In this document: positions 1,641-64,000 of the stretch, in pieces | Layout: the number at the start of each line of letters is the position of its first letter | How positions within the stretch are numbered: position 1 is the first letter of the stretch | Assembly: GCA_030053915.1 (NCBI GenBank) | Contig: JASGCT010000003.1 | Coordinates: 8,779 to 72,778, forward strand | DNA: 64,000 nt | Origin: Alphaproteobacteria bacterium | GTDB taxonomy: Bacteria > Bacteroidota > Bacteroidia > Chitinophagales > Chitinophagaceae | Direction of reading: 5' to 3' | Program-made: the position numbers and the translations under genes | The notes under the pieces: model-generated | Seen by the model: only the letters and a program-made list of their open reading frames with translations | What the model was told of the DNA's origin: nothing | Database searches by the model: none

Positions 1641-2234
1641 TTAATTTTTCCACTTTAAAGTATTAATTAAGTGATACATATCTTTTACAATAAAGTCGTT
1701 AACAATTTTCAATGAATCTTCATTGGGTGCAGTATTAAAATATAAAGTACCTCTTAAAAAATGTTTAACCGAGTCTGTAACATAAAATTGATTGGCTGTA
1801 GCCACATCACCTTGTAATACAAAAAACAACCCAGATACTTTATTAGAATTATGGATTGGATATTCGTCTATTGAAGTTGCTTTAACAGTGTGTCTTGCGG
1901 CTAAATGAAAACATTCATTGATAATTTTTTCTAATGACGATTTTTTTATATCTTTATAACTTAAATAAATGGTGCCACCCAAACTAGGAAATTGTATATT
2001 TATCCAGAATTCATTGTCTTTTTCATGTTCAAAAATGGAACTATCTTTTTGAATATAGGCATAACTTGGATATTCAAATTGATACGGATAATTTTTAAGA
2101 TTAAATTGTTTATAATATCCCGTTGGAAATTGCACTTGGGCATAGCCACGCGGCTTGGGTGTAAAATTTGAATTACAACCCACTATCATTATGAAAAGTA
2201 TAGAAATGACAATAACCAAAGGACTTTGTTTCAT
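1641..2234 (-). CDS. gldD: gliding motility lipoprotein GldD
   Basis: 197 aa with a lipoprotein signal (…IMIVGC). GldD-like strings PKPRGY, QFYVTDS.KHFLRGTLYF and PNEDSL are present. It abuts the gldE-like gene as in Flavobacterium johnsoniae. Confidence 0.7.
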   Translation of the reverse strand: MKQSPLVIVISILFIMIVGCNSNFTPKPRGYAQVQFPTGYYKQFNLKNYPYQFEYPSYAYIQKDSSIFEHEKDNEFWINIQFPSLGGTIYLSYKDIKKSSLEKIINECFHLAARHTVKATSIDEYPIHNSNKVSGLFFVLQGDVATANQFYVTDSVKHFLRGTLYFNTAPNEDSLKIVNDFIVKDMYHLINTLKWKN

Positions 2235-3509
2235 TTAATAGAATTGCATTTTAATTTTGGAAATACGATAGCCTACCATATCTATAATCGTTAATATGCC
2301 AAAGGGCGCGCCATTGTAAATCATATGAATCTTAGGAATATCTTGCAATACATCAATCATAAAACCAGCCATCGTATAAACATCGCTATTGGGTGTTAAT
2401 AAATGCATTAGTTGTATATTAAAGTATTTTTCAACTTCGTCAATTTGCATCTTGCCATCAATAATAAACACTTTTTCTGAAAGTTGTTTGATGTCTTGAT
2501 TTCCAATGTCATCAAACTCGTCTTGAATATCTCCTACTATTTCTTCTAAAATATCTTCTAAAGTAACGATGCCTTCGGTTTCTCCAAACTCGTTAATTAC
2601 AATCGCTAATTGAATACCTTGCTCTTGAAATTGCGCCATAAGTTCAGGAAGTTTTTTATTTTCGTGAATATAAAACGCGGGTTTTATTAAAGTATGCCAA
2701 TTAAATTCAGAATCATTTAAATAAGGTAAAATATCTTGGGTATGGAGCATGCCTACTATATTATTCAAGGAATTTTCATAAACTGGAAATCGGCTATATT
2801 TATAACTTAAAATATCTTTAACTAAATCTTCAAAACATAAATTAAATTGCAAGGCTACAAGATCTATTTTTACTTGCATTATTTGTTTAATCGATTTATC
2901 GCTTAAATGTACGATACCTTTGAGCATATTTTTTTCAATGGGCTTATAGAATTGATTATCATTAATAAATTTTAGAATCTGATGTTTATTGTTGATACTA
3001 ATGAACCTATTTTTTTTGTGCTTTATAAAATTATCTACCGTAAGAACAATCTTGGATAAAGGGTAGAATAGTTTAAAAAAAACAAACACAAAATTTATAA
3101 AAAATGGAATAGACGCATTATACCGTTTCGATGCTATGAGTTTTGGTAAAAGGTCAATAACTATTATTAAAAATATACCAAACACTATCATTTTAATAAT
3201 CGCTTCAATATACCAATTATTAATTTTATTACGAAAATATTCATTAAAAATAAAATTCAAAATTATAATAATACTTACAAATAAAATTTGAATAAAAACA
3301 TTATAGATAATAAAAAACTTATTATCATTTTTAAGCATAAACAATGTTCTTTTATAACAAACCTTACGATGTATTTTTAAAAAACGTATATTAATATGTT
3401 TTAAAGAAAATAAACTTTCTTTAACAAGCATAAATATAAACAACGCGCCAATAAGTAGAATTAAAATAAAGCTAATGATGAGCTCTTGAAAATTATTAAA
3501 ATTATCCAT
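2235..3509 (-). CDS. gldE: gliding motility-associated protein GldE (CNNM/DUF21 TM domain + CBS pair + CorC/HlyC C-terminal domain)
   Basis: 424 aa. It has an N-terminal multi-TM region, a CBS-pair-like centre (…YSRFPVYENSLNNIVGMLHTQDILPYL) and a CorC-type C-terminus. It lies immediately upstream of gldD with no gap. Confidence 0.7.
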   Translation of the reverse strand: MDNFNNFQELIISFILILLIGALFIFMLVKESLFSLKHINIRFLKIHRKVCYKRTLFMLKNDNKFFIIYNVFIQILFVSIIIILNFIFNEYFRNKINNWYIEAIIKMIVFGIFLIIVIDLLPKLIASKRYNASIPFFINFVFVFFKLFYPLSKIVLTVDNFIKHKKNRFISINNKHQILKFINDNQFYKPIEKNMLKGIVHLSDKSIKQIMQVKIDLVALQFNLCFEDLVKDILSYKYSRFPVYENSLNNIVGMLHTQDILPYLNDSEFNWHTLIKPAFYIHENKKLPELMAQFQEQGIQLAIVINEFGETEGIVTLEDILEEIVGDIQDEFDDIGNQDIKQLSEKVFIIDGKMQIDEVEKYFNIQLMHLLTPNSDVYTMAGFMIDVLQDIPKIHMIYNGAPFGILTIIDMVGYRISKIKMQFY

Positions 3510-52417: not shown

Positions 52418-52798
52418 ATGGAATTTAAAAAATTAATCAATATAACTGGTAAACCTGGTTTGTACGAGTTATTAAACTCTAAACAAGATGGTGTCATCGT
52501 AAAAAAATTGGGTACTCAAGATTTGGTTTTTGTGAGTAATCGTAAAACGCCTTTTGCGCTTTTATCTAATATCGAAATGTTTACAACTACGAAAAACATT
52601 TTATTAAAAGAACTCTTGAAAATCATGAAAGATTCTGCAGAGCCCATACCCGAACCAACTGACCTAGCTGGTACTGTAGCTTATTTTAAAAAAATTTATC
52701 CCGAGTTAGATTTTAATAGGATTTATCCTAACGATTTTAAACGTTTAATACAGTGGTTTCAATTAATTAAAGAATTTAACATTGCAATTGAAGAATGA
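52418..52798 (+). CDS. DUF5606-like protein
   Basis: Start at ATG 52418 (MEFKKLINITGKPGLYELL…), which matches my memory of the DUF5606 N-terminus (…ISGKPGLYKL…). The track start 52382 overlaps nuoF. Confidence 0.5.
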   Translation: MEFKKLINITGKPGLYELLNSKQDGVIVKKLGTQDLVFVSNRKTPFALLSNIEMFTTTKNILLKELLKIMKDSAEPIPEPTDLAGTVAYFKKIYPELDFNRIYPNDFKRLIQWFQLIKEFNIAIEE

Positions 52799-55292
52799 GT
52801 ATAGGCAAAATATATTTTTTTTTCTGCCTTTTTTAATATGTTTAATAAGCATTTCAGCTAAAGCTCAATTTACAAAAGTTAAAGGTGTCATCAGAGATTA
52901 CCAACTTGAAGAACCCATTTCGTATGCCTCAATTTATTGGAAGAAGACAGGCCGTGGTTTAGAAACAGATAGTTTGGGCTTTTTTTCGATAAATATTGAT
53001 AAGTATTCCAATAACGATACGCTAATTATTTCGGCAGTTGGATATGTTATAAAGCAAATTCCAGCCGATAAAATTTTGAACCCAGATTTAGGCGATATTT
53101 TTTTAAAAGTTGCGCCGCCCGTTGTAGAAGTAGTTGTTAAAAAAAAGTACGATAGAGGCGTGTGGTTTTGGAAAAAAATCATGGCACAAAAATATAAAAA
53201 CGACCCTAAAAAAATCAAAAACTATTATTGTCAGTTGTATAATAAAATTGAGTTCGATTTAATTAATTTTAATCAAAACCAGCTCAAGAAAAATGTCTTT
53301 ACAAAACCATTTGGCTTTGTCTTTAATTATATAGACTCTGTTTCGGAACGCAAACCTTTTATTCCTATATATCTTATCGAAACGATGTCGGATTTTTATT
53401 ATAAATCCAACCCATCAAAATCCTATGAAAATATTTTTCATGTTCGTGAAAAAGGCTTCGAAAATAAATCTATTATTAAAGAGTTTGGTGGTACGTATCA
53501 ACAAATAAACCCCTATAGCGAAACAATTGATATTCTTCGTTTTCAATTTGTTAATATATTGCATCCCAGTGCCTCCGATTTTTATAAGTTTAAAATTAGT
53601 GATACCATGTATTGGAATGGAAGGGCGCTCATTCGTTTTACGTTTACCTCAAAAATTATTGGCTCGCCAACCTTTGACGGCGAAGCCTGGATAGATGCGA
53701 AGTCTTTAGGTATCCAAAAAATAACGTTGCGACCTAACGTAAACTCAAATATCAATTTTATTGAAGGACTTTCTATTTTACAAGAGTATAATTTATATCA
53801 AGATAGTATTTGGTTTTTACAAAAAGAAAAATTTGTAGCTGATATTGCACCAGTAGGCAATGGAAATTTAGCTTTTAAATCGCGTAAAACAACATTTTAT
53901 CAAACCCCAAAATTTAACGATACCTCTATTACCAATGTATTAGCAGACATAAAAGGTGATGTGAGTGTAGTGGTTAGTAAAGACGTGAATATGAATTTGT
54001 TAGAAGATTCTGTAAACGACATGAAACGCCCTATACCCTTAGAACATAGCGAATTATTGGCTTTAAAAGTGATAGATACTTTGTTTAAAAATAAAACTTT
54101 TAATCTATACAAAAATGCTTTAGAAGTAGTAGCAACTGGTGTGTATGATATTGGTAATTTTACACTAGGACCCTGGACCAATTGGGTTAGTGGTAATCAA
54201 TACGAAGGCTTTAAACTACGGTTTGATTTAGCAACCAGTTACGATTTTAGTTCTAAATGGAATATTGGTGGATATTTAGCTTATGGGTTTTTAGATGAAA
54301 AATTTAAAGGCGGTGTTTTCGGTCGTTATCAAATTTCACGTCAACCTTGGCAATATATCCTTTTAAATTTTAAAAGTGATGTTACGTCGCGTTCTAATAA
54401 TTTAGGTTTTGGTGTAAGCAGTCTATTTGGATCATTATTAAGAGATAATAACATACCATTAAAATTACAGTATCTTGAACAAACAACTTTTACTTATTTC
54501 AAAGAAAATCATAAAGGATTTTCGTTTAAAATCGACATTGAAAATTATAATTACGATCCACTGATTAATTTGCCATCCATAACATTATATTCAAGTTTCC
54601 CCAACGACCCTTTTCGATCATTTCAAACGAATATAACCTTACGTTATGCTCACAATGAACGCTTTTTACAACGAAATTTTTCAAGATTTTCAATAAGAAG
54701 TAGAACACCTATATTTTCTGTAAGTTTAGTTAAGTCTTGGGATAATTTTTTATTAAGTACCAATAAATTTGAAAAAATTCAAGCCAGTATAGAACATCTG
54801 GTAAGCGTACCCAGATTAGGGTCATTAAATTATAAAGTTGTGGGTACTTATATTTTTGGTAAAGTAAGTTATCCTTTTCTCGACTTTGTAACAGGTAATG
54901 AAGTGTATTACTACAATCCCAATGCTTTCAACCTTCTGAATCAGTTTGAAATAGCTTCTGATAAAAATTTATATTTCTTGTTTGAACATAATATTTTAAA
55001 TAGTTTTTTTACATATTTTAAAACAACACGAAAATGGAAATTAAGGCAGTTTTGGACTTTAAAAGCTTTAGTGGGAAATATCTCTACCCAAAGTGCTGTA
55101 TTAAATACCAATAGTCAACCTTTTTTTAATAGTTTAAATGGGAATGTCTATGCAGAAATTGGAACAGGTTTTGATAATATTTTTAAATATTTTAGAATAG
55201 ACTTTATTTGGCGCTTATTAACACCTCAAACAGCAATTCCATTAAATGATCGAACTTTTGCAGTTTTTGCCAGTTTTAGATTTTCTTTTTAA
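52782..55292 (+). CDS. carboxypeptidase-regulatory-like domain + DUF5686 protein (start uncertain: TTG, or ATG 52795 after a 1-nt frame correction)
   Basis: 836 aa. It has a signal-like N-terminus (…FFFLPFLICLISISAKAQ) and a CarboxypepD_reg-like segment (KVKGVIRD…EPISYASIY…TDSLGFFSI). The long C-terminal region has beta-rich character. Confidence 0.6.
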   Translation: MQLKNEYRQNIFFFLPFLICLISISAKAQFTKVKGVIRDYQLEEPISYASIYWKKTGRGLETDSLGFFSINIDKYSNNDTLIISAVGYVIKQIPADKILNPDLGDIFLKVAPPVVEVVVKKKYDRGVWFWKKIMAQKYKNDPKKIKNYYCQLYNKIEFDLINFNQNQLKKNVFTKPFGFVFNYIDSVSERKPFIPIYLIETMSDFYYKSNPSKSYENIFHVREKGFENKSIIKEFGGTYQQINPYSETIDILRFQFVNILHPSASDFYKFKISDTMYWNGRALIRFTFTSKIIGSPTFDGEAWIDAKSLGIQKITLRPNVNSNINFIEGLSILQEYNLYQDSIWFLQKEKFVADIAPVGNGNLAFKSRKTTFYQTPKFNDTSITNVLADIKGDVSVVVSKDVNMNLLEDSVNDMKRPIPLEHSELLALKVIDTLFKNKTFNLYKNALEVVATGVYDIGNFTLGPWTNWVSGNQYEGFKLRFDLATSYDFSSKWNIGGYLAYGFLDEKFKGGVFGRYQISRQPWQYILLNFKSDVTSRSNNLGFGVSSLFGSLLRDNNIPLKLQYLEQTTFTYFKENHKGFSFKIDIENYNYDPLINLPSITLYSSFPNDPFRSFQTNITLRYAHNERFLQRNFSRFSIRSRTPIFSVSLVKSWDNFLLSTNKFEKIQASIEHLVSVPRLGSLNYKVVGTYIFGKVSYPFLDFVTGNEVYYYNPNAFNLLNQFEIASDKNLYFLFEHNILNSFFTYFKTTRKWKLRQFWTLKALVGNISTQSAVLNTNSQPFFNSLNGNVYAEIGTGFDNIFKYFRIDFIWRLLTPQTAIPLNDRTFAVFASFRFSF

Positions 55293-55368: not shown

Positions 55369-58300
55369 ATGTATTATTTAAAAAGTAGAACTATAAAATT
55401 AATTCTATCTACTTGCTGTTTTTTATTTTTAAATAATGTAAATTCTCAAGTAAAAATAACAGTAGGTGCTTCTGGAGCAAATTATACCTCAATCAATGCT
55501 GCTTTAGTTGCATTAAGAACCACAACAATCACTCAACCGCATCAAATTTTATTGCAAAAAAATTATAATTATAAACAAGAAACTATTCCTTTAATTATAA
55601 CCAATCAACCTGGCGCATCAGCTATAAATACCATAACCATTAAACCAGATTCTGGCGTTGTAACCAGTATTAAAGGAGCAGTTGACGGTGGGGCTGTTAT
55701 TAAATTTAATGGTTGTAAATATTTTATTTTAGATGGCAGTAATAAAGTGAATGGCACCACACGCGACTTAACAGTTGTGGACACATCTCAAAATGTTATA
55801 GACATCCATGATGTACCTTCTTATAATTCTAATGCGGTTATCTGGGTATCTACCCCATCTCCTTTTAGTCCAACTTCAAACATCACGATTAAAAATTGTA
55901 ATGTTGAAGGGTATCGAAATGGTTCTGTTTTAACCATTGTAACTGGTATATTAATATCAGGTCCTAATTTCTTTACGAATACCAACGACACTTCTGAATC
56001 TAATAAATATGGCACCATTAATAATATATCAATTATTAATAATCAAATTAGTAATATTCGTTTTTGCGGTATCGGGGCATTGGGTTTGGGGTTAATAAAA
56101 CATTTAGATTCAGGGTTAATTATTGATAGAAATATTGTAGGTTCAGCTACAGTGCCCATGTCTGGTCCACGTTTTATTGGCATTGCAGTGCTAAGATATA
56201 AAAATATTACGATGAGTAATAATGAGATTGTTGGCATGAATCATCCGAGTACTGAAGAAGAAACGCATTTAAATTTTGTGGATGAAAACACTTATGGTAT
56301 TTGTAACATAAATAATTTAAATGCCACGGTTTTTAATAATATGATACATGGTTTAAGTACCGATATTAATAATAGCCAATTATTTGGTGTATATAATAGC
56401 TCCAATGATTATTTAACAAGAGCTGGTAATAAAAGTACCAACCATAGATTTTATAATAATACAATTTATGATTTTGCATTTACTGAAAATAGTAATAGTG
56501 TACCATTTGTTACGGCATTTTATCATGAAGGTGGGTGGCGCGATAAATATAATTTTAATTCGGTATATCTGTCTGGAATTTTTGGCAAAAGCGCCTCCAG
56601 ACCTGTTACGGCTTTTTTTTATTCTAATAGATTTAGCGGTTCGGCTCAAACTATGCTAACAAATTACGATTCTACAGAAATTAGAAATAATATTTTTTAT
56701 ATAAACGATAATACATCGAATGCGAGTAAATATTTGTTTTATACCAATAGAAGTTTACATGCAGCTTTTTATACGAATATGTCTAATAATTTGTATTATA
56801 ATACAGCGAATACTAAAAATTTTATTGCGTACATAAATGGGACGTCTTACCAAACTTTTGGCAATTGGCAAACCTTTGTTGGAACTGCAGATGCCAACTC
56901 TAAATATGGCGACCCCTTATATATTTCAACCACAAATTTAAATATTCAAGCGGGTTCAGCGGCTATCTTATCGGCAATTCCACGTAATAATATTAATTTT
57001 GATATATTATATGCCACCCGCGATGCTATAAAACCTACCATTGGGGCTTATGAATATTCATATAATCCGGCTATAATTAAAAATGCCTATCCTATAATTT
57101 TAAGAAACTTAGATACGCTTAATATAGTGGGTTCTAAGTTAAGTCAAATTCAATTGATTGGATTTCCTGATTCGCAACAGGTATCGACTCTTTTAACTAA
57201 AACAGCCTTAAACGCAACGGATACTTTATATAAAATATTAATACCTAGCGTATTAAGGGGCGGTTTGTATATTGTTAAAGGCGTGGATAATCAAAATTTT
57301 CAAACAACAACGTATCGATTGATTCGGGTTTATACATTTCCAATAGATAGCGTTTATGTTAAAAGTTGGGGTTTTAATGATTATGGACAATATACACGCC
57401 CTGAGACCCAAAGAAGGGTGGTTCATTTAAGTACGGGTTCGGGTCATAGAATTTTATTAAGATTGAATGCCACTGTGCAAGCACAAGGCTTAAATAATAA
57501 TAACCAATTACCGCTAAACCCTGTTGACAGTGTGGTTGAGATGGCGGCAGGTTTAAATCATACTATTTTGTTAAGAACGAATGGTGTGGTACATGTATAT
57601 GGTAATCAAACTAATAAACCAGCCGATTCGGTTGGCTATGTTAATATTTCGGCAGGGTTGCTACATAGTTTATATTTAAAAAATGATTATTCAATGATAA
57701 CACGAGGTAGTAATAGTAATAGTCAGTTAAATGTTCCTGTAACGTTTTTGTCAGCAAGAAATTTAAGTGGTGGCGGTTTTCATTCTTTAGGTATTGGAAG
57801 TACACAAACTATTAGCGGCTGGGGTAGCAATGCCAGTGGGCAGGCAACTCTTGCTGTGGGTTCAAATAATAATATCGAGCTGATTGCTGGGGGGCATATT
57901 CATAGTTTAGCTTCCAAAACAAATAGAGTTCCTTTAGCTTTTGGGAGTAATAGTCGTGGTCAAGCCACAGTACCAACGCTTTCTAATGTGAATTACATTA
58001 AAGCTGGGGCTTATTTTAGTAACGCTTTACAAAATAATGAAATTTTTACGGCATGGGGGTTCAATGGTATAGATACTTTAAATGCATATCCTAGAAATGG
58101 GGCATTAAACTATTCTAATGTTGCTGGTTTGATTGATTCTTTTAATAAACAGCCCGATGTTGTGGCAATAGGAAATAGTACACCCTATATTTATAATTCG
58201 GTATTACAACGATTGTTTATTCAAACTTCAGTTAAGAATGGCACTATTTCACCCAAAATATATTTTAAATGGGGTGATACGGTTGTAATAACCTATAGTC

Positions 58301-61300
58301 CTTTACCAGGGCGGGTATTAGATAGCATTTTTATTGATAGTGTGTATGTTGGCAAAGATTCTTTAATACGATATACATTTCCAAATGCTACTTATAGTAG
58401 GTATATTCGGGTTGTGTTTTCTGACACGCCGCGTCCCGTTGTGCTTCTTAATCCGTCGCGCTTAGGATTAAGACTTTGCCCTAACGAAACCGATACTTCT
58501 AAGTATTTAAAAGTAAGGGCTTTAGGAAATACACTCAATAATCTTAATATTAAACTCTTATCTTATCAATGGTACCGAAATAGATTTAAAGACACTCTGA
58601 ATGGCGTGCCCTTGGCAGGTGCTAATGGCGTTTTAAATTCCTATGATACAACTCTAAAATTTTATCCACCCTCTAATGTTTATCCTGATACTAGTTATTA
58701 TTATGTTCGTTTTATAAATTCAAGTTTTGGCGATACATTTTCCAGCGTTTCGGGGGCTGTGATAACTATGAAAGCAGCAATTTCTTGGAAAATAAATGAT
58801 AGTATTTTTAATTATTGTGTACCAAGTTCCGATTCGGCGTTTATTAAATTACGATATACTAAATTTTATAGTTCCGATACTTTTAATTTTAAATTATATC
58901 AAACAAATACCAATACAAATTATAATGGCATGTTACAGTCGGTCTTGCCATTCCCGCCGCCCGTGCAAACATATAAAACGGCACAATTTTTGGTGAATAC
59001 CCCTCAAACTCGGTATTATTATATTTTCAGTACCAATATGTTTGGATGTATTGATACTACGCCAATTTATACTTTACAATGGACAACATTAATTAATATA
59101 ACTACCATAAATTTAAAAGATAGTTTGTATTGCCAAGGTGCATTAACGAAGGCTTTGGTAATTTCAACTGGTTTAGATTCAAATAAAGTACAATATCGTT
59201 GGTATGCTAATAATATGCCCAGTTTTAATGGAGCTATACCTTTAAATGTTTTAAATGATAGCAGTTTCAAACCATTTTCGATACCCAACGGTATTATTGG
59301 TGATAGTACTTGGTATTACGTTATTGTAACTGATAAATTGGGTGTATGTAAATCGGATACCTCGGTTTTAAGTGGTTTGATAGCTATAACAAGACCCGAA
59401 ATTGTTAATCCCAATACGTTGCTTCGTCAATATTGTCAATATATGGCTCAAGATACTTTGAAAGTAACTGTGAACAATTTATATTGGAAAAATAAAGTGG
59501 ATTATACTTGGTATAAACGCATTGTGTCGATACCTCAAAGTATTCAACTAGTTGGCATGGATAGTTTTTATGTACCAGATGGTTTAAATTACGATTCTGC
59601 TTATTATTTTGCTGTTGTAAGTTCAAAAGCTGGTACGGGTTGCAGTTTACGAGACACAAGTTTCTTGTCTGGGCTGTATATAACCTACCCGTTTCCAACT
59701 ATTTCAAATATCTTAAGAGACACTAGTTTCTGTTTTGTCCCAGGTGTAACAAGTTTAAATCTTACCATTAGCAGCCCATGGCAAACTTCTTTGTTGGTGC
59801 AATGGTATCAAACAAATCAAGGACTTCAGTATATTGGTAATGCTTTAGTGGGCGATACCAATTTATATTTAAATGTTAATAATAAAATTGATACATCATT
59901 TTATTATGCCATTGTTCGCAATAATTACGGGTGTGTGGATACGTCTAATATTGTAAGAGTTATAAATTTTCCGGTGCCCGATTCTAGTTCAATTGATTTT
60001 ATTTTAAATGGGGGTATGCCTATAATATGTGTGCCGGCTGGCGATACAACGCGTGTTGCCATAGCTATTAAAAATCCTCAAAACATACCCTTGACTTGGG
60101 ATATTTATAGAAGTTTTACCAATACTTATATGGGTTCGGTGATACCGCATTTTACTGTGCGTCCTTTAGATTCATTTGTTACCGATACTTTAAGAATATT
60201 TAATCAGAGTACACATTATTTTTATACTGTTTATAGTAATCAATATGGATGTAAAGATAGTTCGTCTATTTCAAAAATTCAATGGTATTTTGGTTTGGAA
60301 CTCAATACGGTGAATTTAACGGGTAATAGCTATTGTCGGGGTGCTATAGCCAACCCGTTAACGGTTGCTTTACAAATTCCTTTAGATACCTCTAGAATTA
60401 TTTATAATTGGTATGGTACGTATTCTCCAACATTATACAATGGTTTTTTATTAGCAACAAATAAAGATAGTTTTTGGGTGCCTGCAACCAACCCTGTGAA
60501 TCCAATTAGAGATACCATGTATTATTATACTATAGTTCAAGATAAATTATTTGAATGTGCTAGCGATACGTCTGCTATTTCTGGCGTTATCATTTTATCT
60601 TATCCTAATATAGATAGTATAACTCAAGTTACAACCCCAGCCGAACGTTGCCAAAATGCTAATTATGATAGTATCTCCGTAAAGCTTAACGGCAATTGGG
60701 TGGGGCAGGTACGTTATGTTTGGTTTAAAAATAAGAGTCAAATTTTTACAGGTGCCGATTCCATTAGTAACGATTCTGTATTGTATCCTATGGCAACACT
60801 TGTAGATACAAGTTATTATTTTTTAGTGGTAAAAGCAGATGCGATGTCTGGTTGTTATGGTGCTGCAGATACAAGTGACATTATTGGCCCCTTTATTACA
60901 TACCCGTATCCTAATATTACTGGTTTGTTAGATACTTTTACCGCAGTGTGTAGAAACACAATACCTGCAATAATATCGGCTCAGTATCAATACTTATGGG
61001 CGACAGATAGTTTAAGATTTCGTTGGTTGGTAAAACCATTTTCAGGTTCGGTTTTTAATATTATTTTAGATACTATTAAAGTGAATTCTTTTGATACATG
61101 GAAGGTTTTAGCCGATAGTTTTGAATTGCAGTATATTGTTTCTAATAAAATTGGCTGCGCCGATACGTCTAATATTGGACGATACGAATTATTAAGAACG
61201 GCATTTCAAGATAGCGTAAAAATAATCATCAATGATAACATTTCAAATTTATGTTTGAATTTATTGGATAGTCAAATGATATTTTTAAAAACTGTCAATA

Positions 61301-64000
61301 CAAATCTTACGCCCATGCCACCTGATTACCCGATGCCAATTACTTGGAAGATATTTATATCAGATACCAATGTATTTAATGGCAACCAATTAAATTTTAA
61401 TCAACGATTATTACCCCAAGATACCAATTATTTTGATTCAGATAAATTTGCCATTTCAAAATCTAATATTACGTCCACTAAATACTTTTATTCAGTACTA
61501 ACAAATAGAAATGGTTGTATGGATACATCGATGCCATTTAAAATTGATTGGACACGTTTATTAAAAATTACCAATATAAATTTAAATGGTGCATTGTATT
61601 GTAATGGTGATACAGCCTTGCCTTTGGCAGTTTCAGTAAAAGGATATGATACAACGAGGATTTTATACAAATGGTATCGTAATAACCAAGTTAGTATTTT
61701 AAATAGCCAATTAGTTAAGTCTAGCAATGATTCTTTTTATATACCTTTAACAAATTATAAAGCGGGTGATAGTTCTTATTATTTTGTTATAGCTGAAGAT
61801 AAATTAAACTATTGTATTGCGGACACCTCTAATATTTCTGGGTTAATTTATTTAAGAAATGCTACGTATATCAATACTTTTGATACAACGGATTATAATA
61901 AGTGTATCAATAGCGGGTCTTTTGATTCTTTAAAAATTGGGATTTATAATGGTTGGGCAGATTCCTTTAATTATACTTGGTATCAAGCGGCATTAACTAA
62001 TAATTATGTACCCGCTTTCTATTCAAACAAAAAATCTATTCAGCCCAACCAAACAATTGCCGATTCAGTTTATTATTTTTGTATTTTGAAGCCTTTAACA
62101 AGTGCTGTTTGCCCAAGAATAAATGATACGACTAAATATAGTGGGTTGTACGTTGTCTATCCTTTACCAATAATAAATAATATTTTATTGGATACTGTTT
62201 TATGTTTTACAAATTCACCATTATCTTATAGTTTGGACATCAATCCTATTTGGATGCCAAGTACTCAAGTTTGGACTTGGTTTATAAATGATTCAAATCG
62301 ATTTAATGGTGCTACAAGTCTTGGTAATTATGCTTTTAAAAATATTAATATATTTCTAAAAGACACGAATATTATAGATACAAATTATTATTTTGCACAA
62401 TATCAAAATACGTATTGTCAGGTTCGTTCGAATATTTTTAATATAGTGGTTTATCCTAAACCCAGCCATCAAATTATAAATTTCAAGGCGTCTGTTATAG
62501 ATAATTGCGTTCCAATTCAAGATAGTTTTGTGAAAGGACTCAGTTTTTCAATTTCTTATTTAAGCCCTTTACCACAATTATCTACGCGATTTTATGTAAG
62601 TTCCTCAGCCATGTTTTCGGGAACTTTATTAACAACAAGTTCTAAATCTGGTTCGGGTTTTGATTCTGTTTTTAATGTTGCAGAAGCCCTTAAAGTGAGT
62701 AACCCGCAATCTTATTATTTTTATGCTTTGCTTGAAAATGTGCTTGGTTGTGTTGATACCACACCTCTTAAAAACATTAATTTTATTGATAAAATAATAG
62801 CGACTACAATTCAATTAAATAGCCATATCTATTGTATCGGTGAGGCTCCCGTAGCATTGCAAGTAAGTAATGTTTTGGGTTATGATACTACTAAAATAAA
62901 TTATAGTTGGTACGGTAATATAATGTATGATTATAATTCGGCTAACTTGTTTTCTGTTTTAAATGATAGTTTTTATTTCCCTGCTACTGTGCCTTCGATG
63001 TTGGTTAAAGATTCAATGTTTTATTATGCTGTATTAACAGATAAAAACAATTATTGTCGTTCAGATACATCAGCAATTAGCGGTGCAATTGTGATTAATT
63101 ATCCAAAAATAGTGGTACAACCCAATCGTAATAATTATACATTATGTTTTGGAAATCCAATACCTAAAATTTCAGTAGGTATCGATAATAATTGGAAGTT
63201 AAATGTTGATTATTTTTGGTACAAGTTAAAAGATACATTAAATTTAAATTCTGCAGTTTTAGTTTCTAATGATAGTGCTTTTGTACCCATTTTAAATGCA
63301 GGCGATACGGCATATTTTTATTGTATTACCAAAGGTAAATCAAGTTCTAGTTGTCCTAATTTTGTGGATACCACAAATTTTTCTGGTGTGTATATAATTT
63401 TTAGAACACCAGTAATTACGAATATATTTAAAGACACAAGCTATTGTAGTAATATTGATTCTGCAAGATATCAGCTAAAATTGGCTCAAGTAAATATAGC
63501 AGATTCTGTTAAAATTAGTTGGTATGTGAGTAACAATAATAGTTATAATGGCAACCAAATATTAGGACTATCAGATTCTATTTTTAATACCAATAGAACG
63601 ATTGGTACGCGATATTATTATGCAGTTGCATCTAATAAATATCTTTGTTTTGATAGCTCAAATATATTTAATGTTATCATAAACCCGCATCCTTATCAAC
63701 AAGGAATTTCTGATATCATAAATAATAATTTAGGTTTATTATGCTTGCCTATTAATTTTGCTACTAAAGTGAACGTAATCGTTTCCAATCCTTTAAATGC
63801 TAGTATTAGTTGGTCTTTATATCAAAGTACGATACCGTCCAAAAATGGCACTATTTTAAGTGTGTTTCCAACCTCAAGGGTTGATTCGTTTGTTACAGAT
63901 TCTATAAAAATTAATATGCCATCTGTGAAATATTTTTATACTATTTATTCAAATAATTTTGGTTGTTTTGATACGTCTGATGTTTTTAGAATTGAATGGT
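55369..64000 (+). CDS. giant secreted multidomain surface (adhesin-like) protein, 5' part only; 2,877 codons in the window, 3' end beyond the window
   Basis: Frame +1 has no stop from TAA 55297-55299 to base 64000. ATG 55369 is the first in-frame start codon of any type. A -7 box lies at 55357-55364. The N-terminus MYYLKSRTIKLILSTCCFLFLNNVNSQ is signal-peptide-like. The ORF is absent from the track only because it is not closed by a stop. Confidence 0.9.
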   Translation, partial: MYYLKSRTIKLILSTCCFLFLNNVNSQVKITVGASGANYTSINAALVALRTTTITQPHQILLQKNYNYKQETIPLIITNQPGASAINTITIKPDSGVVTSIKGAVDGGAVIKFNGCKYFILDGSNKVNGTTRDLTVVDTSQNVIDIHDVPSYNSNAVIWVSTPSPFSPTSNITIKNCNVEGYRNGSVLTIVTGILISGPNFFTNTNDTSESNKYGTINNISIINNQISNIRFCGIGALGLGLIKHLDSGLIIDRNIVGSATVPMSGPRFIGIAVLRYKNITMSNNEIVGMNHPSTEEETHLNFVDENTYGICNINNLNATVFNNMIHGLSTDINNSQLFGVYNSSNDYLTRAGNKSTNHRFYNNTIYDFAFTENSNSVPFVTAFYHEGGWRDKYNFNSVYLSGIFGKSASRPVTAFFYSNRFSGSAQTMLTNYDSTEIRNNIFYINDNTSNASKYLFYTNRSLHAAFYTNMSNNLYYNTANTKNFIAYINGTSYQTFGNWQTFVGTADANSKYGDPLYISTTNLNIQAGSAAILSAIPRNNINFDILYATRDAIKPTIGAYEYSYNPAIIKNAYPIILRNLDTLNIVGSKLSQIQLIGFPDSQQVSTLLTKTALNATDTLYKILIPSVLRGGLYIVKGVDNQNFQTTTYRLIRVYTFPIDSVYVKSWGFNDYGQYTRPETQRRVVHLSTGSGHRILLRLNATVQAQGLNNNNQLPLNPVDSVVEMAAGLNHTILLRTNGVVHVYGNQTNKPADSVGYVNISAGLLHSLYLKNDYSMITRGSNSNSQLNVPVTFLSARNLSGGGFHSLGIGSTQTISGWGSNASGQATLAVGSNNNIELIAGGHIHSLASKTNRVPLAFGSNSRGQATVPTLSNVNYIKAGAYFSNALQNNEIFTAWGFNGIDTLNAYPRNGALNYSNVAGLIDSFNKQPDVVAIGNSTPYIYNSVLQRLFIQTSVKNGTISPKIYFKWGDTVVITYSPLPGRVLDSIFIDSVYVGKDSLIRYTFPNATYSRYIRVVFSDTPRPVVLLNPSRLGLRLCPNETDTSKYLKVRALGNTLNNLNIKLLSYQWYRNRFKDTLNGVPLAGANGVLNSYDTTLKFYPPSNVYPDTSYYYVRFINSSFGDTFSSVSGAVITMKAAISWKINDSIFNYCVPSSDSAFIKLRYTKFYSSDTFNFKLYQTNTNTNYNGMLQSVLPFPPPVQTYKTAQFLVNTPQTRYYYIFSTNMFGCIDTTPIYTLQWTTLINITTINLKDSLYCQGALTKALVISTGLDSNKVQYRWYANNMPSFNGAIPLNVLNDSSFKPFSIPNGIIGDSTWYYVIVTDKLGVCKSDTSVLSGLIAITRPEIVNPNTLLRQYCQYMAQDTLKVTVNNLYWKNKVDYTWYKRIVSIPQSIQLVGMDSFYVPDGLNYDSAYYFAVVSSKAGTGCSLRDTSFLSGLYITYPFPTISNILRDTSFCFVPGVTSLNLTISSPWQTSLLVQWYQTNQGLQYIGNALVGDTNLYLNVNNKIDTSFYYAIVRNNYGCVDTSNIVRVINFPVPDSSSIDFILNGGMPIICVPAGDTTRVAIAIKNPQNIPLTWDIYRSFTNTYMGSVIPHFTVRPLDSFVTDTLRIFNQSTHYFYTVYSNQYGCKDSSSISKIQWYFGLELNTVNLTGNSYCRGAIANPLTVALQIPLDTSRIIYNWYGTYSPTLYNGFLLATNKDSFWVPATNPVNPIRDTMYYYTIVQDKLFECASDTSAISGVIILSYPNIDSITQVTTPAERCQNANYDSISVKLNGNWVGQVRYVWFKNKSQIFTGADSISNDSVLYPMATLVDTSYYFLVVKADAMSGCYGAADTSDIIGPFITYPYPNITGLLDTFTAVCRNTIPAIISAQYQYLWATDSLRFRWLVKPFSGSVFNIILDTIKVNSFDTWKVLADSFELQYIVSNKIGCADTSNIGRYELLRTAFQDSVKIIINDNISNLCLNLLDSQMIFLKTVNTNLTPMPPDYPMPITWKIFISDTNVFNGNQLNFNQRLLPQDTNYFDSDKFAISKSNITSTKYFYSVLTNRNGCMDTSMPFKIDWTRLLKITNINLNGALYCNGDTALPLAVSVKGYDTTRILYKWYRNNQVSILNSQLVKSSNDSFYIPLTNYKAGDSSYYFVIAEDKLNYCIADTSNISGLIYLRNATYINTFDTTDYNKCINSGSFDSLKIGIYNGWADSFNYTWYQAALTNNYVPAFYSNKKSIQPNQTIADSVYYFCILKPLTSAVCPRINDTTKYSGLYVVYPLPIINNILLDTVLCFTNSPLSYSLDINPIWMPSTQVWTWFINDSNRFNGATSLGNYAFKNINIFLKDTNIIDTNYYFAQYQNTYCQVRSNIFNIVVYPKPSHQIINFKASVIDNCVPIQDSFVKGLSFSISYLSPLPQLSTRFYVSSSAMFSGTLLTTSSKSGSGFDSVFNVAEALKVSNPQSYYFYALLENVLGCVDTTPLKNINFIDKIIATTIQLNSHIYCIGEAPVALQVSNVLGYDTTKINYSWYGNIMYDYNSANLFSVLNDSFYFPATVPSMLVKDSMFYYAVLTDKNNYCRSDTSAISGAIVINYPKIVVQPNRNNYTLCFGNPIPKISVGIDNNWKLNVDYFWYKLKDTLNLNSAVLVSNDSAFVPILNAGDTAYFYCITKGKSSSSCPNFVDTTNFSGVYIIFRTPVITNIFKDTSYCSNIDSARYQLKLAQVNIADSVKISWYVSNNNSYNGNQILGLSDSIFNTNRTIGTRYYYAVASNKYLCFDSSNIFNVIINPHPYQQGISDIINNNLGLLCLPINFATKVNVIVSNPLNASISWSLYQSTIPSKNGTILSVFPTSRVDSFVTDSIKINMPSVKYFYTIYSNNFGCFDTSDVFRIEW
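55450..56900 (+). other. parallel beta-helix (PbH1-like) region of the giant protein (approximate bounds)
   Basis: Recurrent Asn-ladder turns are present: NITIKNCNVEG, ISIINNQISN, ITMSNNEIVG, VFNNMIHG, FYNNTIYD, EIRNNIFY, MSNNLYYN. Confidence 0.55.
57358..58068 (+). other. RCC1/BLIP-II-like beta-propeller repeats within the giant protein
   Basis: About 6 short blades: SWGFNDYGQ, AAGLNHTILLRTNGVVHVYGN, SAGLLHSLYL, GGGFHSLGIGSTQTISGWGSNASGQ, AGGHIHSLAS…AFGSNSRGQ, TAWGFNG. Confidence 0.6.
58430..63999 (+). repeat. array of 18 diverged Ig-like modules (about 100 aa each) organised as four-module super-repeats
   Basis: Each module follows the pattern C…(Y/F)xW(Y/F)…(D/T)(S/T)xYY(Y/F)…GC.DTS. Super-repeat boundaries fall at 59083, 60286, 61552 and 62785, and the last one ends at 63999 (401, 422, 411 and 405 codons). 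Confidence 0.8.

Follow-up and report, generated by a model that had tools for sequence, protein, structure and literature searches.

A giant, probably type IX-secreted surface protein of a Chitinophagaceae bacterium with 33 Ig-like modules in a four-type order

At which level is a protein of 4,569 amino acids (aa) ordered when most of its length consists of similar modules, and what may have preserved that order? The question is raised by a giant gene whose 5' part fills the end of a 64,000-nucleotide stretch (contig C5, positions 8779-72778, hereafter the window) of a 2.7-Mb bacterial assembly (166 contigs, 95% complete). The GC content of this genome is low (~30%), and NuoF from the same window showed 82-86% identity to sequences of Hydrotalea, Sediminibacterium, and other Chitinophagaceae, and therefore the host is a low-GC member of this family. 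An initial annotation of the window had described a nested hierarchy of Ig-like modules, four-module super-repeats, and possibly a 12-module unit of ~3.7 kb. The present analysis recovered the two lower levels but not the highest, and the gene product is, with good confidence, a giant surface fibre secreted by a type IX secretion system (T9SS), with a distal head and a stalk of 33 Ig modules in strict four-type order that would form a stapled, glycosylated, and stiff rod, without a 12-module unit.

Module types and their order

The giant frame is uninterrupted from 55369 to the end of the window on the plus strand, as read from the list of open reading frames (ORFs) and the translation, and it reaches its full length beyond the window, with neither an N nor a stop over 13.7 kb of the contig. 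Between aa 1025 and 4400, it encodes 33 two-cysteine modules of 97-116 aa each, which share the skeleton Cys ... xW(Y/F) ... D(S/T)xYY(F/Y) ... GCxDTS, with the first Cys ~12 residues into the module, the GCxDTS Cys ~72 residues later, and the first Cys of the next module ~30 residues further. Eighteen of them lie inside the window (the first from ~58441), in agreement with the 18 consecutive modules of ~100 aa with a shared skeleton noted earlier. The order of the full array is C D (ABCD)x7 A B C, and the window holds C0 and D0 followed by ABCD four times; the four blocks had previously been placed with starts 12 nt away from those in Table 1, their end motifs (IQW, IDW, INF, and IEW) and boundaries being right to within four codons.

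In the maximum-likelihood tree of the 33 modules, types A and D formed clades (support 97/94 and 97/93, respectively), type B occupied one side of a branch, and eight of the nine C modules grouped together. The type labels required three changes on this tree, which is the minimum and was reached in 0/200 shuffles, so that the four recurring types proposed for the array reappear as A/B/C/D clustering of the modules. Mean global alignment scores were 128, 119, and 123 at lags 4, 8, and 12, respectively, and 16-32 at all other lags, and the identity in the multiple sequence alignment was 19.5% at lag 1 (~19% over lags 1-3) compared with 30.7%, 28.6%, and 28.8% at lags 4, 8, and 12; semi-global pairwise identities were dropped in favour of these two measures, as free end gaps had inflated some values. 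Variants thus recur at a fixed period, with same-position copies closer to each other than to their neighbours, and the four-module super-repeat is borne out by both the trees and the lag scores. Titin, from eukaryotic muscle, likewise has long Ig-type arrays in which variants return at a constant spacing, and domains at the same position resemble each other more than they do their neighbours. The likeness is an analogy only, since titin belongs to another kingdom, homology does not reach beyond the fold, and a partner filament matching the four-module period is not known. Moreover, same-type copies are only ~30% identical, yet type-specific residues were retained in 55 of 97 columns (z > 5) over 22-24 copies per type from three proteins, which argues for a type-specific constraint.

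Homologues, age of the copies, and the proposed 12-module unit

Among 5.8 billion clustered proteins, the whole architecture was common to only two close relatives, P0003 (5,557 aa) and P0004 (2,920 aa), which yielded 43 and 17 modules, respectively, under the same cutting. The joint tree of the three proteins kept the types (A 95, D 99, B 92); the age of the types far exceeds that of the single copies. Between the 33- and 43-module proteins, identity is 53% in the head and 34% in the array. When their modules are numbered (q for the 33-module protein, x for P0003, and y for P0004), reciprocal best matches connected q00-q04 with x00-x04, q08 with x08, q18 with x28, and q22-q32 with x32-x42; q13 pairs with x23, and for q05 and q07 the positional partner was the best match, non-reciprocally. 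In addition, five block pairs between these two proteins were supported at 95-100% in a midpoint-rooted tree of 17 ABCD blocks from the three proteins. At the level of sequence comparison, it is shown for this family that the ancestor shared by the 33- and 43-module proteins already possessed the blocks in their positions.

The homologues also indicate how the array changes. The ten extra modules of P0003 are a tripled five-module segment C' D A B C (x08-12, x13-17, and x18-22; residues ~1849-3350), with 33-55% identity at lags 5 and 10 vs 22-28% just outside; this triplication is lineage-specific, breaks the period of four, and makes C/C' junctions. The order C D (ABCD)x3 A B C is common to P0004, to P0010 (another protein with 17 modules), and to a paralogue within the same genome. 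This paralogue lies on two contigs, C130:2822-5869 (head and five modules) and C155 (the whole 5.6-kb contig, with 12 modules and the sorting domain), and once joined it would have the 17-module plan; it is 36-40% identical to P0004, P0010, and the 33-module protein. On the metagenome contig carrying P0004 (L096:1-14763), a P0003-like gene lies directly upstream, with 18 modules visible before the locus end cuts it, and therefore the 17-module form is a paralogue class and not the orthologue; the 33- and 17-module class genes are not adjacent in the genome of the window. Complete arrays thus have 17, 33, or 43 modules, always starting with C D and ending with A B C, and the copy-number comparison suggested earlier found the ABCD order common to them. 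It is likewise shown for the family, judging from these alignments, that array length changes by multi-module segments and not by single modules. One further candidate for a block-number variant, P0012 (13 modules), ends within a D module and has no sorting domain; it was regarded as truncated and left uncounted. A search of a collection of genome contigs with the head alignment found no relative, and a six-frame search of 200 genomes from the same order found only partial matches to the beta-helix part (30-35% identity) and no orthologue.

The copies are ancient, with synonymous sites near saturation. Same-type modules share 46% DNA identity (range 34-58%), and their identity at third codon positions was 42% vs 35% expected from composition. 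Tandem Repeats Finder detected nothing at module scale; the direct DNA repeats were short conserved-motif stretches of 60-80% identity at ~1.2 kb spacing, and the array held no long DNA repeats (none above ~75% identity and none longer than ~70 nt). The statement that the copies are well diverged in DNA is thereby upheld. These data also bear on whether the array could be an assembly artefact, with repeats mis-assembled or collapsed and an order that is not biological. The fragmentation of the genome into 166 contigs and the split of the paralogue across two of them would favour such an artefact, but the divergence and brevity of the DNA repeats, the single 13.7-kb open frame, and the colinear modules in independent homologues from other samples leave it a next to negligible probability. 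The positional orthology of blocks in diverged homologues and the near saturation of synonymous sites agree with the initial annotation, which read the array as old, maintained modularity.

A 12-module unit had been proposed from the closeness of type-D modules three blocks apart and of the pairs B1/B4 and C1/C4, and it would have arisen from duplicated 12-module segments. Part of this closeness holds: A1/A4 (z = +1.3), C1/C4 (+1.9), and D1/D4 (+2.1) are closer than average, D0 and D3 formed a clade (95) in the joint module tree, and a clade of blocks 1+4 was retained in the approximately unbiased (AU) test (p = 0.43). B1/B4, however, was not raised (z = -0.2), and the signal is local to blocks 0/1 and 3/4 (types A, C, and D) and amounts to no period. 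Over the full array, lag-12 pairs had a mean within-type z of -0.04 (permutation p = 0.58), and neither their score nor their identity exceeded those at lags 4 and 8. Three of the four predicted block pairs were rejected by AU tests (2+5, p = 0.004; 3+6, p = 0.03; 4+7, p = 0.003), and the block tree instead joined blocks {2,6}, which are 16 modules apart (96/95), with block 7, less well supported (84/96), as their nearest neighbour and {1,3,4,5} across the midpoint root. A three-block unit is thus very improbable and already largely refuted. The deeper kinship of the blocks, as read from the trees, is {1,3,4,5} vs {2,6,7} without a three-block period, and one old segmental relationship may exist between blocks 0/1 and 3/4. 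The true units of change, by the same evidence, are the four-module block and, in one homologue, the five-module segment.

Fold, cysteines, and the predicted secreted fibre

For the fold, AlphaFold2 (AF2), supplied with block 1 and an alignment of 17 block rows, gave an all-beta model (predicted local distance difference test, pLDDT, 88.3; predicted template modelling score 0.61) with ~7-9 strands per module and four similar strand patterns. A Foldseek comparison with the PDB yielded 241 matches (E <= 0.001), with probability 1.00 to tandem Ig arrays; ranked first were I-set Ig arrays of four to six domains (neurofascin, contactin, sidekick, and Dscam; E ~1e-10), and the best TM-scores among the 50 matches listed belonged to a cryo-EM fragment of the GhpA stem (9flu_A, 0.33/0.37). 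Sequence matches of the block profile to the PDB were marginal and solely to Ig-superfamily chains, via the F-strand motif D-S-A-x-Y-Y, and a phmmer search of the PDB with the whole array gave no match. The predicted structure of an ABCD block is in line with the Ig-like modules of the initial annotation, and the modules are modelled as tandem, I-set-like Ig beta-sandwiches. The Pfam family Ig_7 (PF19081, 'Ig-like domain CHU_C associated') likewise describes an Ig-like module upstream of CHU_C, and it occurs in a distant relative within the same genome; however, one type-C module scored only 20.7 bits against Ig_7 (E 5e-4; cut-off 27.3 bits), and neither the whole array nor any of types A, B, and D matched it. 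At its own threshold, no curated model covers the module family.

The conserved cysteines are not those of the canonical intradomain B-F pair of Ig domains, as they lie at other positions and their loss covaries between neighbours. The model places the first Cys (C1) where strand A' ends and the second (C2) in the F-G loop, positions expected at opposite domain ends from the I-set/V-set Ig topology. In all three homologues, the first module has the first Cys only and the capping domain after the array has the GCxDT Cys only, so that pairing C1 of module i with C2 of module i+1 leaves 0 orphans among 66 conserved-position cysteines, whereas either alternative pairing leaves two. In a sample of 445 modules from 11 arrays, more distant giants included, C2(i+1) was missing from 13 of the 17 cases that lacked C1(i) vs 8 of the 382 that had it (Fisher p = 5e-16, a value that overstates the case since the arrays are related and the events not independent, although the direction is clear). 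The association between C1(i) and C2(i) of the same module was weak (p = 0.01), and none was detected between C2(i) and C1(i+1) (p = 0.53). From these patterns we infer that disulfides probably link module i to module i+1 rather than closing within a module. In addition, B3, B4, and B5 alone among the 33 modules have an extra Cys in D-S-x-Y-Y-F-C, at the canonical Ig F-strand position and without a B-strand partner (Cys 2238 at ~62080-62085, Cys 2652 at ~63322-63327, and aa 3056 past the window), and x29, y07, and y10 carry the same extra Cys.

The array contains 57 copies of D(S/T)(A/I/L/V/M/T), the sequon for O-glycosylation in Bacteroidota, where 11.7 +/- 3.2 would be expected, a five-fold enrichment that stems partly from structurally conserved D(S/T) motifs, suggesting that the stalk is probably O-glycosylated.

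The domain order of the protein is signal peptide, beta-helix-like region, BLIP-II/RCC1 propeller, 33 modules, a small capping domain whose one cysteine lies in GCVDT, and a CHU_C sorting domain of T9SS type B. The hydrophobic N-terminus, as read from the sequence, ends in VNS/Q, and the S/Q motif is also found in both homologues (VNS/QV, LYS/QN, and TYS/QV in the three proteins). An N-terminal glutamine after signal cleavage is a habit of Bacteroidota, which these ends fit. The head region (~550 aa) had a weak match to an NCBIfam rhamnogalacturonidase (beta-helix; E 0.0023) and no Pfam match, and it shares 30-35% identity, in the beta-helix part only, with N-termini from further giant ORFs of the same order. 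For the propeller, Pfam RCC1_2 scored 44.1 bits (cut-off 22), with an additional WD40_RLD match, and residues ~664-900 matched BLIP-II structures with a three-sequence profile (E 8.7e-48). BLIP-II is an RCC1-like seven-bladed propeller; here the propeller is one domain within a giant fibre, and the similarity is in sequence only. The last 169 aa matched both PF13585 (CHU_C; 58.1 bits vs a cut-off of 27) and TIGR04131 (44.3 bits vs a cut-off of 35), and the SprA translocon is encoded in the genome (SprA_N PF14349, 456 bits, in a 2,457-aa frame on contig C42). The sorting domain, the Sec signal peptide, and the translocon in the genome together place the protein among T9SS type-B substrates.

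The domain architecture shows a protein exported by Sec and then by the T9SS via its C-terminal type-B (CHU_C) domain, which would stay near the outer membrane, while the beta-helix-like region and the BLIP-II/RCC1 propeller lie at the distal N-terminus; the part in the window would be the proximal-to-middle stretch of the stalk of this proposed cell-surface fibre. The first Cys of module i would pair with the GCxDTS Cys of module i+1 and thereby staple every junction, and stapling together with O-glycosylation would produce a stiff rod of ~140 nm presenting the head for adhesion. This length is an estimate from ~4 nm per Ig domain, a value that roughly fits GhpA (240 nm for 52 repeats plus hook). 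Several observations weigh against this picture. The AF2 run on the N-terminal 1,024 aa (3-row alignment) reached a pLDDT of 34 and was unusable, and none of the checked neighbours of the giant gene is a PorP/SprF-type partner gene. Type-B substrates are usually held to need cognate PorP-like partners, and the genome has 11 CHU_C proteins vs one detectable PorP/SprF-family gene (PF11751, contig C44). The relatedness of the arrays used for cysteine covariation and the structural share of the sequon enrichment belong here as well. Furthermore, the type-specific excess mutual information was 0.39 and 0.45 bits at the module termini vs 0.31 bits elsewhere, a slight excess at the ends only, and since type information is spread over the whole module, co-adaptation at the junctions is not singled out.

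Explanations for the order and comparison with known fibres

Why the four types have persisted is most likely explained by co-adaptation of the junctions together with avoidance of misfolding, the junction part being an idea and not proven. The four junctions (A/B, B/C, C/D, and D/A) would be co-adapted, so that only whole-block changes would leave all of them native, and unlike neighbours would also escape inter-domain misfolding. Dissimilar neighbouring Ig domains avoid inter-domain misfolding, and titin-type arrays keep neighbours dissimilar (PMC4660218). The same principle can be turned towards another explanation, in which the ABCD order is a historical by-product of a duplicated four-module ancestor, the types persist by inertia and selection against similar neighbours, and the period has no structural meaning: neighbours (~19% identical) and same-type modules (~30%) are both well under the level of tandem-Ig co-misfolding in that source (PMC4660218). 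This explanation is possible, if on the doubtful side. Other giants made of the same modules have other periods (6 in C109 and P0008, and a weak 4 in C58), and P0003 tolerates a C/C junction from its five-module duplication; however, inertia accounts poorly for the type residues kept over so many copies at ~30% identity, for the C D start and A B C end identical in all complete homologues, and for the same module count held by two independent 17-module proteins and the same-genome paralogue. An unlikely extension is that the period of four is a structural register, with a fixed turn per stapled junction, four modules making one full turn, and every fourth module facing the same side. If so, chains could bundle side by side (as they do in the GhpA stem) or glycans could be displayed on one side, stalk length would be tuned in one-block steps of ~17 nm, and the difference of exactly 16 modules (four blocks) between the 17- and 33-module arrays, the two complete classes that lack the five-module insertion, and the constant C D and A B C ends of every complete homologue would be explained.

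Among known systems, the closest in plan is GhpA (grappling hook protein A), a T9SS substrate of Aureispira (PDB 9flu), which has a signal peptide, an N-terminal adhesin head, tens of Ig-like repeats, and a T9SS sorting domain, and in which, by cryo-EM, disulfides join each Ig-like domain to its neighbours and all domains bear glycans (bioRxiv 10.1101/2024.01.29.577165). The GhpA stem fragment matches the ABCD model by fold, and the disulfides and glycosylation predicted here would resemble those of GhpA, which together might suggest a similar grappling hook, in which parallel chains form a hollow, rigid fibre for prey capture (ixotrophy). Such a function is improbable. There is no sequence similarity to any GhpA fragment by phmmer of the array and the block profile against all PDB chains, the head here is a propeller and a beta-helix-like region in place of a hook, no PorP/PorE genes adjoin the gene as they do in GhpA, and a search of the genome, which is 95% complete, found no type VI secretion system (T6SS) sheath gene (VipB); predation in the manner of GhpA is therefore unlikely. 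The GhpA stem is also heptameric and hollow according to the same preprint, whose consulted passages mention no four-type order. Similarly, SprB, the gliding adhesin of Flavobacterium johnsoniae (6,497 aa), is a giant repetitive surface filament with a type-B CHU_C/TIGR04131 domain, but it differs in its head, and no sprF-like gene lies downstream here. The SprB repeat (PF13573) had no match in the giant protein (E <= 0.1), and a genome search for it was empty, as was its control. An SprB-like gliding role is possible, though the SprB repeat is absent from the protein.

The preferred reading, a T9SS-secreted adhesive fibre with co-adapted junctions, is an architectural finding without a new biological principle, and the protein belongs to the known class of giant T9SS Ig-repeat surface fibres. 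Fibres of this class (SprB and GhpA) have a central part in the gliding, adhesion, and predation of Bacteroidota, and little has been described of the logic behind their long Ig arrays. The array offers a clean, testable case, with a strict four-type order across diverged homologues and length change by whole multi-module segments, and the covarying loss of cysteines is a sequence signature that predicts disulfide staples between consecutive modules. Among 1.84 billion cluster representatives, the block profile matched 4,459 at E <= 0.001 and 442 at E <= 1e-30, and a dedicated domain model would better annotate many huge 'hypothetical' proteins. The features of the gene inside the window are given in Table 1; past the window follow blocks 5-7, the last A B C, the capping domain, and the CHU_C sorting domain.

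Table 1. Coordinates of the giant gene and its parts within the window (position 1 is the first nucleotide of the window)
Feature	Position	Strand	Remarks
Giant gene, 5' 8.6 kb of 13,710 nt (4,569 aa)	55369..64000	+	Ends at C5:77856, past the window
Sec signal peptide (MYYLKSRTIKLILSTCCFLFLNNVNS, followed by Q)	55369..55449	+	Read from the sequence; likely cleavage site would leave an N-terminal Gln
N-terminal head, NNxIxN-type repeats, probably a parallel beta-helix	55450..57093	+	Weak NCBIfam rhamnogalacturonidase match
RCC1/BLIP-II-like beta-propeller	57358..58068	+	Pfam RCC1_2, WD40_RLD; BLIP-II profile match
Module C0, first Ig-like module	58441..58779	+	First Cys only, without the GCxDTS Cys
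Module D0	58780..59094	+	
Super-repeat block 1 (A1 B1 C1 D1)	59095..60297	+	Block modelled with AF2, pLDDT 88.3, all-beta
Super-repeat block 2 (A2 B2 C2 D2)	60298..61563	+	
Super-repeat block 3 (A3 B3 C3 D3)	61564..62796	+	
Super-repeat block 4 (A4 B4 C4 D4)	62797..64000	+	Last residues of D4 cut by the window end

Directly upstream of the giant gene, on the same strand (window 52782-55292), lies a gene for an 836-aa DUF5686 and CarboxypepD_reg protein, possibly of the outer membrane, and the downstream neighbours encode an AP-endonuclease, a DUF3098 protein, and FtsX. In other giants with the same modules (C109, C58, and P0006-P0008), in which the ABCD order was sought, there were neither D-type modules nor an ABCD order. 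One of these, on contig C109 (~99160-139035, minus strand, outside the window), is a frame of at least 13,292 aa that is cut by the contig end and carries ~102 two-cysteine modules and CHU_C; its period is 6 and not 4 (scores of 89 at lag 6 and 86 at lag 12, vs ~40). Another, the 6,937-aa frame on contig C58 (P0005), is a giant CHU_C protein with ~63 such modules and a weaker period of 4. In total, matches of the module hidden Markov model fall in 12 frames of the 2.7-Mb genome, which together make up ~100 kb of coding sequence.

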